In this document: piece by piece, positions 21,637 through 24,026 of the stretch
How positions within the stretch are numbered: the first letter of the stretch is position 1
Layout: every line of letters starts with the position of its first letter
Assembly: GCA_964517125.1 (NCBI GenBank)
Contig: CAZFBD010000001.1
Coordinates: 8,277 to 52,106 of the forward strand
DNA length: 43,830 nucleotides
DNA from: an uncultured Acidimicrobiales bacterium
GTDB lineage: Bacteria; Actinomycetota; Acidimicrobiia; Acidimicrobiales; SHLQ01
Reading direction: 5' to 3'
Notes under the pieces: model-generated
Seen by the model: the letters and a program-made list of their open reading frames with translations, nothing else
Databases searched by the model: none
What the model was told of the DNA's origin: nothing
Translations under genes and position numbers: made by a program

Positions 21637-22017
21637 TCAGCCGTCGGGTTCGCCCGAACGAAACCGGTCCATTTGTCGCCGATCCCGTTTCGTCGGCCGA
21701 CCTGACCCCGGTTCTCGGGTTGCGACCGGAGCGGGACGTTCGGGCCGAGGTTCAGGTGGCGGCGTGTGGTCGATGAACGCCTCAGCAGCGAGTGCCGCGC
21801 CCACCCGTTTCGACGGTGTCTCGACGACTTCAAGCTCTCGGCTGAAACCCCGCTGTCGGGCCGTGACCCGGTCTCCGGCCTTCACTGCCCGGCTGGGTTT
21901 CACCACGGCGCCATCGATGCGAACCGCTCCGTTGGCGCAGGCCGTGTTTGCTGCAGACCGGGTCTTGTAGACACGGACGGCCCACAGCCACACATCGATT
22001 CGGGTACCGCTGGTCAT
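21637..22017 (-). CDS. hslR: Ribosome-associated heat shock protein Hsp15 (S4 domain)
   Basis: RIDVWLWAVRVYKTRSAA..AC..G.V.I.G, and GSGRPTKRDRR. Confidence 0.92.
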   Translation of the reverse strand: MTSGTRIDVWLWAVRVYKTRSAANTACANGAVRIDGAVVKPSRAVKAGDRVTARQRGFSRELEVVETPSKRVGAALAAEAFIDHTPPPEPRPERPAPVATREPGSGRPTKRDRRQMDRFRSGEPDG

Positions 22018-22041: not shown

Positions 22042-22092
22042 AAAAAGGTAGAGACCCCTGGGCGTTGGCCGAAGCCTCCGCTCAGGGGTCTC
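22042..22092 (-). terminator. Intrinsic terminator closing the candidate ncRNA
   Basis: 14-bp stem GAGACCCCTG(A/G)GCG at 22051-22064/22079-22092, inner cUUCGg hairpin, followed on the minus strand by UACCUUUUU. Confidence 0.75.
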
Positions 22093-22412
22093 AAGGTCGG
22101 TTCAGGATCCACCCGCATCGTCTTCTCCGGATATACCGTTTCCATCGATGTACCACTGCCCCGTCGGACTTGCGTCTGGCGGGGCAGTTCTGTTTCGGGT
22201 CTCGGACTCTGGCCGAAGCCGTTGTCTGAGGCTGCGTCCACCAGCCTTCCGTTGCCCGAGGGCGGTGGTCGGTGTGGTGTCGGCTGCGAACCGTGTCCCT
22301 TGCTCTGGGCTTTTCGCAGTCTTCCTGCCTCCGTTTTGCCCAACGTCGCTCCCGGTTGCCCGGTTGTTCTGCTGAGCCCCGGTGGCGCTCGTGCTGCGCT
22401 TCCTCCGTCGCT
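22042..22412 (-). ncRNA. Candidate ~370-nt structured ncRNA (Ms1/6S-like or novel)
   Basis: Gap without a credible protein; TTGACG-N17-AAAGGT promoter; GCAA and cUUCGg tetraloop hairpins on the minus strand; terminator at the 3' end. Confidence 0.65.
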
Positions 22413-22418
22413 GAGAGC

Positions 22419-22447
22419 ACCTTTGTGGCTCGAACAGAATGCGTCAA
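22419..22447 (-). promoter_or_regulatory. SigA-type promoter of the candidate ncRNA
   Basis: -35 TTGACG (22442-22447), 17-nt spacer, -10 AAAGGT (22419-22424). Confidence 0.6.
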
Positions 22448-22628
22448 GGGCATTGATGAAATCCCCAGAGTTGTCGACAGCTTTTCCGAGATATCCCCAG
22501 CTTCTGTGAAGTTAATCACAGAGTTATCCGGAGCCTGCCGAGCTGCCCCGGTTCGGGTCTGGGCCGCGGGCACGTTCACACACTCCCCAAAGAGGTCCCC
22601 CGGGCGAACCACGGCTAGCGTGTCTGGT

Positions 22629-24026
22629 ATGTCGAGACGCCTCGAAGTAGAGCTCACCAGTAAACGCGAAGACGGTTCCTACACATGGAGAGCCGCCGGA
22701 GCCAAACAGCCCAAGGGCGACCTCGACGGATCGCTTCTGTACGAGGGTGCAGCCGTTGGCGATGTCGTGCGTGCCGATGCCGAGTTCGGCGTCGATGGCG
22801 TGACAATCGTTGGCGTGCAGCCTCCGAAGGCGAAGCGTTCCATGCCAGAGATGCTCGAGATCCTGGGCACAGGCCGGGACGAGGGCGGCGTCACCACTCA
22901 GCTGGTCGGCAAGCGTGGTCGAGACGACCGTGGAGATCGCGGCGATCGCGGTGGACGCGGTGGCGACAAGCGCCGAGGCGGCGGTGGAGGTCGTGGACGC
23001 GACAACCGTGGCTCCCGCGACGGTGGCCGCGATGGACGGAACCGCAACGAGGGTGGCGGCCGAGGCGACAACCGTGGCGGACGTGGTCGAGGTGGGGGCA
23101 ACGATCGCCCGCGCCGGGAACGTCCACAGCAGGCACCCAAGGCCAAGCCGAAGCGGCTTCGCGCACGGCGTGTTCACCGCGATGCAGCGCTCAACGAGAT
23201 CCCGGAAATGCAGCGTCCGCTTGCCCGGATCGTGCTCCGAGACGGTGTGCCCGGCCTGCGTTCCACCATCGAACGGCAGAACGAACTCGCCCGAACCCGC
23301 TCGCAACCCGAGATTCCGCCCAAGATGCTCGAAGCCGTCGGTGAGCGTTTGCTCCCACGTCTGCGTTCCGCAGAGTGGCGTGACAACGCCGAGGCCGCCC
23401 TCGCCGGTATTGGCGATGTTGACCTGCGCGACATCCGCAAGGTTGTCGTTGCCGCCGAGAACGGGGCGAAGGACGAAGAAGGCCGAGCGCTCGCCGAGCA
23501 GCTGAAGGCCGGGCTCAGTGCCCGGGTCGAAGCCGAGCATGGCAAGTGGCTCAGCGAACTGAACAGCCTCCTCGGCGATGGTCGCACGGTTCGTGCGCTC
23601 CGTCAGTCGTCGCGTCCACCCAAGGCCGGCGCGCCGCTTCCAGCCGAACTGGCAACTCGCCTGACCGAGGCCGCCAGCGCGTCCATGACGGCCGATACCG
23701 CTCCCGAGCGTTGGGGCACCGTGCTCGACGCCGTGGCGTACTCCCCCGTCAGGCAGCAGGTGAACCCACAGGCGCTGCCGTCCAAGGTCAGCGATGAACT
23801 GCGCTCGACGGTTCGGAAGCTCTCGAAGCGTGTCCCACACATCGCAGCGTTGTTCAAGGAAGCTCCTGCAGCTTCGGCTCCTCCGGCTCCCGCGCAGGAA
23901 GCTCCTGCCGCCGATACCGCCGCCGCTCCGGCAGAGCATGCCACTGCGCCAGCAGAGGCCACGACGGCGCCCGAGGCCGCTCCAGCCGCAGCTGACGCAC
24001 CCCAGGAGACCGAAGGTCAGTCCTGA
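22629..24026 (+). CDS. Hypothetical protein with beta-rich N-domain, RGG/RD-rich disordered segment and helical C-domain
   Basis: ATG 22629, 7 nt after TAGCGT; MSRRLEVELTSKREDGSYTWRAAGAKQPKG...RGDRGGRGGDKRRGGGGGRGR... Confidence 0.8.
   Translation: MSRRLEVELTSKREDGSYTWRAAGAKQPKGDLDGSLLYEGAAVGDVVRADAEFGVDGVTIVGVQPPKAKRSMPEMLEILGTGRDEGGVTTQLVGKRGRDDRGDRGDRGGRGGDKRRGGGGGRGRDNRGSRDGGRDGRNRNEGGGRGDNRGGRGRGGGNDRPRRERPQQAPKAKPKRLRARRVHRDAALNEIPEMQRPLARIVLRDGVPGLRSTIERQNELARTRSQPEIPPKMLEAVGERLLPRLRSAEWRDNAEAALAGIGDVDLRDIRKVVVAAENGAKDEEGRALAEQLKAGLSARVEAEHGKWLSELNSLLGDGRTVRALRQSSRPPKAGAPLPAELATRLTEAASASMTADTAPERWGTVLDAVAYSPVRQQVNPQALPSKVSDELRSTVRKLSKRVPHIAALFKEAPAASAPPAPAQEAPAADTAAAPAEHATAPAEATTAPEAAPAAADAPQETEGQS

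Follow-up and report, generated by a model that had tools for sequence, protein, structure and literature searches.

The closest described systems to the element reported here are the noncoding RNAs (ncRNAs) Ms1, CoRP and raiA. In those sections of PMC4191392 and PMC9130861 that describe it, Ms1 is a highly structured and abundant RNA of ~300 nucleotides (nt), whose gene forms a unit of its own between a sigma-A-like promoter and a rho-independent terminator in hosts without 6S RNA. Its fold is given in the same part of PMC4191392 as a long hairpin with a central bubble, and its gene lies close to the replication origin (ori) and is transcribed toward it in 84% of cases. Tables 1-3 of PMC9130861 place a gene for a HAD-IB hydrolase ('inhibition of morphological differentiation'/phosphoserine phosphatase) beside Ms1, the flanking pair being this hydrolase plus an oxidoreductase, a glycosidase or Fic, and the main text of that survey states that Rfam contains Ms1 candidates. 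CoRP, as described in part of PMC11077062, is an intergenic RNA of 516 nt in Corynebacterium glutamicum, a host without 6S or Ms1; it binds RNA polymerase (RNAP), has tRNA genes on its flanks and is cut into two pieces. The raiA RNA measures ~200 nt with ~25% invariant positions, according to the relevant section of PMC10861870. This study concerns a candidate RNA gene on the minus strand of a 43,830-nt stretch of DNA (the window) from an uncultured Acidimicrobiales bacterium (assembly GCA_964517125.1, contig CAZFBD010000001.1, positions 8,277 to 52,106), where it lies between a gene for an S4-domain, Hsp15-like protein (hslR) and a gene for an RGG-rich protein.

The data suggest that the window contains a free-standing gene for a stable, structured ncRNA of ~370 nt, and that this RNA belongs to an uncatalogued Acidimicrobiales family whose gene carries a DnaA-box-like array. 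We regard this reading as probable. The region has a promoter and a terminator, holds no conserved open reading frame (ORF) and occurs in at least five unrelated genomic contexts, which together are the marks of a free-standing small RNA gene. The predicted RNA runs on the minus strand from an A at 22412, 7 nt past the -10 element, to a U-tract at 22046-22042, or possibly to a processed 3' end near 22096-22099. Its length is ~371 nt in the window (22042-22412) and 329-400 nt in 18 relatives, 12 of which fall between 373 and 383 nt. The first-pass annotation of this DNA had proposed a TTGACG-N17-AAAGGT promoter with a start near 22412, and this sequence is present on the minus strand at 22419-22447, with the -35 hexamer TTGACG at 22447-22442, a 17-nt spacer, the -10 hexamer AAAGGT at 22424-22419 and a purine, A, at 22412. 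AAAGGT agrees with TATAAT at only 2 of 6 positions, and a scan for E. coli-type promoters called none here, its sole call being a terminator-like hairpin on the plus strand; the scan misses the promoter because the actinobacterial -10 does not fit its rule. The -35 (CGTCAA in plus-strand letters) does not vary across 15 aligned relatives, in which A2 and T6 of the -10 are retained, and the TTGACS-17-(A2..T6) layout recurs at the loci examined from other families. At the other end, an intrinsic terminator (22042-22092, minus strand) is made up of a stem at 22051-22092, which has GGC-UUCG-GCC in its interior, and of ACCUUUUU after it, the last base of which is 22042. The stem has 10 pairs, 4 of them with compensatory changes, and the plus-strand letters AAAAAGG at this site are almost invariant. 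In the proposed mechanism, the sigma-A-type promoter would drive the RNA as a unit of its own and the terminator would end it.

The case for a conserved structure is carried by two alignments, one of 18 genus copies read on the minus strand (A1) and one of 39 distinct sequences from several families, fitted to the model (A5). For A1, RNAalifold gave 66 pairs, 26 of them compensatory, at -69.8 kcal/mol on the minus strand, and 41 pairs, 13 of them compensatory, at -57.9 kcal/mol on the plus strand. In the minus-strand consensus 94.4% of the cells pair compared with 87.3% in shuffles, and 26 of the 66 pairs show double changes compared with 13.8±2.3 in shuffled alignments, none of 500 of which reached 26. 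When the partners were moved by 1-3 columns, only 5-8 double-change pairs were found. A5 gave a similar picture, with 97.0% of cells pairing and double changes at 17 of 35 pairs (7.7±1.2 shuffled, 0 of 500 reaching this number; 2-10 in the slid controls). Both alignments exceed their shuffled and slid controls, as is asked of a structured RNA family, and the covariation in relatives on which the first-pass annotation had made its proposal depend is present. The single minus-strand sequence of 371 nt also folds better than its shuffles (z = -3.74, 0 of 100 shuffles as good). No reading frame is kept open across relatives and 188 of the 227 gap runs in the alignment are not multiples of 3, which rules out a protein-coding region.

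The consensus has three parts, namely a variable 5' domain, a conserved 3' domain and the terminator, all on the minus strand. The 5' domain (22301-22412) differs between clades, and its closing helix (consensus columns 8-27 with 117-138) is poorly formed in the window's own sequence. It contains the tetraloop hairpin CCGG-GCAA-CCGG (22352-22363), in which 4 of 4 pairs have compensatory changes and whose loop is GCAA, CUUG, UUCG or GAAA across relatives. The 3' domain (22099-22299) is the conserved core, a multi-helix junction closed by a long-range helix of 22286-22299 with 22099-22112. This helix is rich in conserved G·U pairs, comprises 11 pairs that are 98% paired, and does not form on the plus strand. 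One of its pairs changes from C-G to U-A (15:3 in A1 and 20:11 in A5), and two further pairs vary, one as G-C/G-U/A-U and one from A-U to G-C/C-G. Enclosed within it are four hairpins. The first, GCC-CUCG-GGC (22254-22263), has a UNCG-type loop and 3 pairs, 2 of them with compensatory changes, and takes GC, CG, AU and UA pair types in A5. The second, GGC-UUCG-GCC (22211-22220), keeps a C(UUCG)G or C(UCCG)G loop in 18 of 18 copies, with an outer stem that varies. The third is a long hairpin, ACUGCCCCG-CCA-GAC(GCAA)GUC-CGA-CGGGGCAGU (22155-22188), with a conserved C·A / C-G / A·C interior; its stem is invariant inside the genus, two adjacent pairs swap from G-C/C-G to C-G/G-C in 11 of 39 sequences, all from other families, and the motif GCC(A)G...C(C)GAC is seen again in those sequences from other families that were examined. 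The fourth, AUCG...CGAU (22117-22149, with an inner stem at 22129-22137), encloses an invariant ACGGUA...CCG and is 100% paired, with one pair changing from A-U to G-C. In 29 diverse sequences ACU, CCCG, ACGGUA, CCG, CGA and GGUGGA are invariant, and ~28 of ~105 core positions do not vary at all. The hairpins at 22352-22363, 22211-22220 and 22155-22188 and the terminator with its U-tract had all been named at first pass, and all are in the sequence. Two other stems of that annotation have to be revised: the CUGCGAA/UUCGCAG stem (22284-22319) exists only in the window's sequence, where it competes with the conserved long-range helix, UUCGC being elsewhere the 5' strand of that helix, and the GCAA-capped stem placed at ~22238-22268 is actually the conserved GCC-CUCG-GGC hairpin.

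Comparison of the whole window with all 4227 families of Rfam 15 (cmscan) gave no match at the gathering score. In the region itself, the only matches at E <= 10 were RybB, neisseria_FSE and MAT2A_A (E 2.9-5.2), which lie outside the core or are confined to the terminator and are at chance level. The first-pass annotation had seen no RNase P or tmRNA signatures, in agreement with the finding that both RNAs, each normally an essential gene in one copy, are encoded elsewhere in the genome (RF00010 at C20:58490-58846, 256.8 bits; RF00023 at C19:62167-62564, 90.2 bits), which rules out either identity. The raiA family (RF03072) has no match in the region or in the source genome at E <= 1, and this identity is likewise ruled out, since the model works in the order, where it found raiA in 58 of the 151 genomes sampled (G105, an unpublished genome, is part of this tally). 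Only 1 of 13 carriers of the new RNA (G086) also has raiA, where ~5 would be expected if the two were independent and with phylogeny uncontrolled; in one family (f5) raiA is found in two genomes, and the new RNA takes its place in the third. As a lead only, the distributions of the two RNAs can be called nearly complementary. No description of the new RNA was found in the open-access literature searched, supplements being outside its scope. The earlier suggestion of a new ncRNA class is supported by the lack of an Rfam match, by the covarying fold and by the spread of the RNA over several Acidimicrobiales families.

That spread was traced with three covariance models (CMs), namely R1, built on the 3' domain, a second model (R2) and a shorter core model (R3). 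R1 matched 24 of the 25 other genomes of the genus, 23 of them over the full length and one partially (G020), and had no match in G006, which is 72% complete, nor, under strict filters, in any of 16 genomes from seven other genera of the family. R2 added copies from a further three families of the order, scoring 76 bits in both G107 and G167, 47 in G103 and 38 in G131; partial R2 matches in G112 and G064 were rejected because only a hairpin was covered. A 19-base signature searched in 185,579 species genomes gave 56 loci, of which 31 are full-length R2 matches and the remaining 25 are chance matches in unrelated phyla. The 31 full-length loci carry Acidimicrobiales or Acidimicrobiaceae labels, except for Actinospongicola halichondriae Hal317, which is a cultured carrier, and one contig labelled Verrucomicrobiales. 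The copy on that contig (L181, JBLIMK010000001.1), which comes from a metagenome-assembled genome (MAG), is identical to that of a genus member (G001) and is probably a labelling or binning matter and not a transfer. R3 gave 16 matches at E <= 0.01 among the 151 sampled genomes of the order. Ten weaker loci were inspected, and 7 of them have the upstream array, the TTGACS -35 and the downstream terminator, features that are absent from R3; the three weakest (L222-L224) lie inside coding sequence and are false. The confirmed carriers therefore number 13 of 151, and because R3 is a short core model, distant members may escape it. In the phylum-wide sample of 151 genomes, R3 gave no credible match outside the source genome, although ~140 of the 150 others represent different classes; the lone additional match, at 26.5 bits, is a common terminator that follows a transporter gene. 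Within the reach of these searches, the family appears to be confined to the Acidimicrobiales.

The genomic contexts of these loci suggest that the RNA gene moves independently of its neighbors. In its own 4.76-Mb, 158-contig genome the RNA region has a single match, and the CM searches gave one full-length match per genome, which rules out the multicopy repeat or miniature inverted-repeat transposable element (MITE) that the first-pass annotation had weighed against its own proposal. A DNA search recovered the intergenic region from 18 of the 25 other genus genomes, and hslR and the RGG gene flank the RNA in the 15 relatives where both could be located, with spacers of 518-829 nt. In five genomes of the genus that had escaped the DNA search, a divergent copy (34-44 bits) sits at a different locus, between a 2-hydroxyacid-dehydrogenase (2-Hacid_dh) gene and a DUF1697 gene and convergent with the former; this copy retains the promoter type, the upstream region and the ACCUUUUU terminator. 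In two MAGs of this divergent group (L035 and L036) hslR is just 61 and 136 nt away from the RGG gene, and the RNA is found on other contigs (L191 and L154). In four other clades the flanking families, taken from the nearest ORFs only, are 2-Hacid_dh_C and DUF1697, zf-dksA_traR and Trans_reg_C, Bax1-I and GNAT, and ABC_tran and SdrD_B. No neighbor is common across clades, and an all-against-all blastp of the flanking ORFs of 21 loci showed synteny only within one six-locus clade. In G107 and G167 (L145:666-1361 and L144), which represent one genus only, a dksA/traR-type zinc-finger gene lies beside the RNA gene in divergent orientation. Proteins of the DksA family bind RNAP. In another genome (G106:C1, L216) the box array is directly preceded by a tRNA-like sequence that ends in ...GGTTCAAGTCCTCTCGACCGCACCA and is located ~340-420 nt ahead of the RNA core.

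The upstream DNA, by comparison, stays with the gene. Conservation continues ~110 bp past the -35, and this block accompanies the gene to other loci and families, making the unit an RNA gene plus ~110 bp of upstream DNA with 4-6 same-oriented DnaA-box-like repeats. In the window the array spans 22459-22532 (minus strand), a block conserved in 15 of 15 aligned relatives, and its words in plus-strand letters are AAATCCCCA (22459-22467), TTGTCGACA (22471-22479), ATATCCCCA (22491-22499), TTAATCACA (22512-22520) and TTATCCGGA (22524-22532). On the RNA strand these resemble TGTGGAYAA, and across loci the array consists of same-oriented words such as GGTGGAYAA, TGTCGACAA and CTGGGGAT. We take the DnaA box consensus to be TTATCCACA or TTGTCCACA, which was used here as TGTGGAYAA. 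Counting 9-mers with at most one mismatch between -420 and -150 before the 3' domain of 35 loci (4 of 39 lacked enough upstream sequence) gave 79 boxes in 9,450 bp, compared with 22 in 213,554 bp in the rest of the same loci, or 8.36 per kb against 0.10 per kb. Of these boxes 77 are co-oriented with the RNA, and 34 of the 35 loci have at least one, which makes the region a DnaA-box cluster across loci. In the source genome such boxes occur at 0.18 per kb, and three or more per 200 bp are found only upstream of dnaA (C13) and dnaB (C71); both of these regions hold GGGGAAATCC or GGGGATAAC words, similar to the CTGGGGAT of the RNA promoter. The second of these clusters (C71:16600-17067) precedes dnaB (C71:15141-16535, minus strand) by 240-520 nt and falls within a ~530-nt spacer, where GGGGATAAC and GGGGAAACAAC words and an ~87-nt direct repeat also occur. 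Most sites of the exact word GTTRTCCAC in this genome are coding, as VDN codons. TGTGA-N6-TCACA at 22505-22520, a perfect CRP-type palindrome, contains TTAATCACA and is kept only in this genus subclade. CRP binding at this site is possible, but since other clades have GTGGAYAA-type boxes at the same position, the palindrome is read as one box of the array.

A mechanism can be proposed from these features. DnaA occupancy of the array would set transcription of the RNA and would tie its level to replication or growth status; this step has about an even chance of being right. The RNA would then act in trans as a protein-binding or scaffold RNA, and the choice of this mode of action over base-pairing or an effect in cis is, in our estimate, evenly balanced. 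Its partner might be RNAP, in which case the RNA would fill a 6S/Ms1/CoRP niche that is apparently empty in the order, though RNAP in particular is an unlikely partner. A wider version is tentative and on the doubtful side: an abundant RNA found across the order and placed under a DnaA array would signal the state of replication or growth to a global target, for instance RNAP, and would take over, in Acidimicrobiales without raiA, 6S and Ms1, the part that these RNAs have elsewhere. A weak hint of expression comes from RNA-library contigs of 4 runs from 2 studies, all of which fall within 22096-22404 with ends at 22096 (X5), 22099 (X14), 22399 (X5) and 22404 (X8); the DNA runs contain the whole 801-nt stretch. 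The contigs leave hslR, the RGG gene and the promoter uncovered, which carries no weight either way. These contigs hint weakly at a 5' end near 22412 and, again weakly, at a possible processed 3' end just past the closing helix of the 3' domain and before the terminator.

Several observations weigh against the reading of a minus-strand ncRNA gene under a DnaA-box array. The RNA-library contigs carry neither strand nor level, and RNA libraries can contain DNA. Both the covariation and the box counts derive from related sequences that are not independent of one another. Detection in the order is patchy, and the genomes beyond the 13 carriers are either lineages without the RNA or lineages that the models miss. 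The window's own array is degenerate, with 1 of its 5 words (TTGTCGACA) within one mismatch of the DnaA-box consensus and the others at 2-3 mismatches. In most of the promoter boxes the final letter is C or T and not the A of the classic box (GGTGGAYAA and not TGTGGAYAA), so another DNA-binding protein may be the one that uses them. The distance between the RNA gene and dnaA is also inconsistent, amounting to 50%, 47% and 45% of the chromosome in three single-contig genomes (G009:C1:3716561, G103:C1:1767630 and G177:C1:2055752) and to 220 kb and 146 kb in two genomes of one other genus (G107:C6:457427 and G167:C7:310426). Finally, single-sequence folding of 406 nt is better on the plus strand (z = -5.45, -190 kcal/mol) than on the minus strand (z = -3.63, -172.5 kcal/mol). 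The hairpin at 22155-22188 pairs perfectly, with G·U pairs, only on the plus strand, where it precedes a U-rich run and was called terminator-like, and its minus-strand form always retains one or two C·A/A·C mismatches.

Among the alternative explanations, the one that survives best is that the RNA belongs to the Ms1/6S group or is its direct functional counterpart, that is, an abundant RNA that binds RNAP (core or holoenzyme) and stores or sequesters it in slow growth. As a whole this seems unlikely. The likeness to Ms1 (MTS2823/scr3559 of Actinomycetes) lies in the shared phylum, the single-gene unit with a sigma-A-like promoter and a terminator, and a rough size of 300-400 nt, as in the description of Ms1 in part of PMC4191392. 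The name Acidimicrobiia has 0 occurrences in the main text of the Ms1 survey (PMC9130861), and CoRP, in the section of PMC11077062 that reports it, is a precedent for unrelated actinobacterial RNAs that bind RNAP. 6S (RF00013) is present neither in the region nor in the source genome at E <= 1 and was found in 0 of 151 genomes of the order by a model that did match the E. coli, B. subtilis, Caulobacter and Synechococcus controls. The RNA-library contigs over the gene fit this alternative, if weakly. However, no Rfam family matches above chance level at E <= 10, no HAD-IB hydrolase gene flanks the RNA in any of five contexts as far as the nearest ORFs go, and R3 found nothing credible in the rest of the phylum sample. 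The fold consists of two branched domains and lacks a rod with a bubble, a point that counts equally against RNAP as the partner in the mechanism proposed above. Homology with Ms1 is not supported, in view of the lack of CM or sequence similarity, the missing HAD synteny, the fold and the placement relative to ori, and the same goes for the 'divergent Ms1/6S' of the first-pass annotation if homology was meant. Identity with 6S is ruled out by the unmatched RF00013 model and by differences in size and fold. A role like that of Ms1 or 6S keeps its small share of probability because 6S was found in none of the 151 genomes of the order and because CoRP shows that lineage-specific RNAP-binding RNAs occur in hosts without 6S and Ms1.

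It is also conceivable, but improbable, that the DNA is what matters. The array would then be a locus that titrates or recharges DnaA (of the datA/DARS or DnaA-box-cluster type) or an auxiliary origin, and the RNA would be a by-product or a local helper, for example through transcription remodeling the site. In support of this, the oriented array is conserved with the unit in every clade examined, box clusters in the source genome are otherwise found only upstream of dnaA and dnaB, the unit lies 45-50% of the chromosome away from dnaA in the three single-contig genomes, and clusters of DnaA boxes outside the origin tune initiation in B. subtilis (as described in part of PMC3245932). However, selection acts strongly on the structure of the RNA body and not on the array alone, at least 17 pairs covarying between families, and the invariant core sits in the RNA. 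The two genomes of one genus in which the unit is 146-220 kb from dnaA also disagree with this explanation, and binding of the array by DnaA is, as in the favored reading, a supposition. In the three single-contig genomes the RNA gene is near the expected terminus, an observation on few genomes and from a post hoc comparison.

A large catalytic or ligand-binding RNA, with the junction nucleotides as an active site as in a ribozyme-like 'ornate' ncRNA, is a still more improbable explanation. The multi-helix junction, in which invariant nucleotides are left unpaired or form wobbles (ACGGUA and GGUGGA, conserved G·U and C·A pairs), is the kind of feature that would fit it, and the raiA paper speculates that large well-conserved bacterial ncRNAs may be ribozymes (PMC10861870). 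The invariant positions are, however, just ~28 of ~105 in the core, the 5' domain varies freely, no pseudoknot was found (no test aimed at one was made), and the neighboring genes give no clue to a substrate.

The possibility that the RNA is a cis-acting leader (attenuator or riboswitch) of the hslR-like gene, perhaps autoregulated by the S4 protein, is very slim. S4 domains bind RNA, the two genes are on the same strand with the terminator directly upstream of the hslR start (the ATG at 22017 is 24 nt beyond it), and this arrangement is kept in the 15 genus relatives that have both flanking genes. Against a leader, the terminator may be as little as ~10 or as much as ~200 nt from the hslR start, the RNA sits away from hslR in five genomes of the genus, the two MAGs with closely spaced hslR and RGG genes (61-136 nt) have it on other contigs, and the genes downstream of it in other families are unrelated and sometimes convergent. 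An hslR leader is excluded, or at least largely refuted, by this relocation of the RNA away from hslR in other genomes.

Equally slim is the case for a functional plus-strand transcript, either a structured RNA or a long 5' untranslated region (UTR) of the RGG gene that ends at or uses the 22155-22188 hairpin, since the better plus-strand fold and the perfect hairpin with its U-rich run are outweighed by a plus-strand consensus with fewer pairs and less covariation, by long-range helices and a terminator that require minus-strand G·U pairs, by tetraloops that would become CGAA, UUGC or CAAG, by the lack of a conserved plus-strand promoter for the element and by its presence in other clades without the RGG gene. 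The loops of five hairpins read UUCG, UCCG, CUCG, GCAA, GAAA or CUUG on the minus strand, and the terminator (7 U-G/G-U cells) and two long-range helices carry G·U pairs that become C·A on the plus strand. The RGG gene has a -10 of its own next to its ATG, which makes a long plus-strand leader unnecessary. On these comparative data the functional strand is the minus strand: the first-pass annotation had cautioned that some stems have G-U pairs on the plus strand, a doubt that minus-strand covariation, the tetraloops, the terminator and the long-range G·U pairs resolve, and a plus-strand RNA or RGG 5' UTR is ruled out. The C·A/C-G/A·C interior of the 22155-22188 hairpin is accordingly read as a conserved non-canonical motif of the minus-strand RNA and not as evidence for the plus strand.

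The two genes that flank the RNA in the window lie outside the RNA unit and are divergent, with ~600 nt between them, and both are as the first-pass annotation gave them. The hslR-like gene (21637-22017, minus strand) encodes an S4 domain (Pfam S4, E 2.5e-11), and its product scores 44 bits against the NCBIfam Hsp15 model, under the cut-off of 148 bits. The RGG-rich protein gene (22629-24026, plus strand, ATG at 22629) has no match to a Pfam or NCBIfam family. Its own -10, TAGCGT, is at 22616-22621 (plus strand), and a TANNNT -10 stands 6-8 nt ahead of the ATG in 15 of 15 aligned relatives, a spacing that suggests its mRNA is probably leaderless. The N-terminal 95 residues of the RGG protein are conserved across the Acidimicrobiales, with 53-86% identity over the best segment at 80 loci.

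Acidimicrobiales are abundant in sea water, sponges, soil and activated sludge, and they are genetically little studied. A new large family supported by covariation joins the orphan 'ornate' bacterial RNAs OLE, raiA, Ms1 and CoRP and, unlike most orphan RNAs, it offers a regulatory clue in the oriented array that follows the gene through at least five contexts. If control by DnaA is real, it would couple the initiation of replication directly to a global regulatory RNA, and the family would be the first large ncRNA class directly under the replication initiator. Experiments are feasible in the cultured carrier Actinospongicola halichondriae Hal317, whose copy (L170) is near 1.7676-1.7679 Mb of NZ_CP171622.1, and the covariance models and a 32-nt signature can be used to annotate Acidimicrobiales genomes.

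Compared with described systems, the new RNA resembles each of them in part. Against Ms1, it shows no sequence or CM similarity, the ori-proximal and ori-directed placement is not kept (with dnaA as a proxy for ori), and it has a DnaA-box array, which is not mentioned for Ms1 in the portions of PMC4191392 and PMC9130861 that describe that gene. Like 6S, it would be a stable, abundant small RNA encoded from promoter to terminator, to which a growth-linked global role would be suited, but it is ~370 nt long where 6S has ~180-190 nt and it lacks the rod and central bubble. It shares with CoRP, compared here by description only, the character of a lineage-restricted, long, structured intergenic RNA in an actinobacterium. 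With raiA it shares that of an orphan, abundant and complex-folded ncRNA of Gram-positive bacteria, but the two are unrelated in sequence and fold, and the raiA loci examined (2 of 58) have no box array. The array itself is most like the DnaA-box clusters of oriC, dnaA and the B. subtilis DnaA-box clusters, in that it has several co-oriented 9-mers at most one mismatch from TGTGGAYAA within ~100-200 bp directly upstream of a promoter, and the dnaA and dnaB upstream regions of the same genome share words with it. It differs from classic DnaA boxes in that most of its putative DnaA-binding words start with GG or AG and not TG, and it differs from the known clusters in that the gene it would control is a structured ncRNA and not a replication gene.

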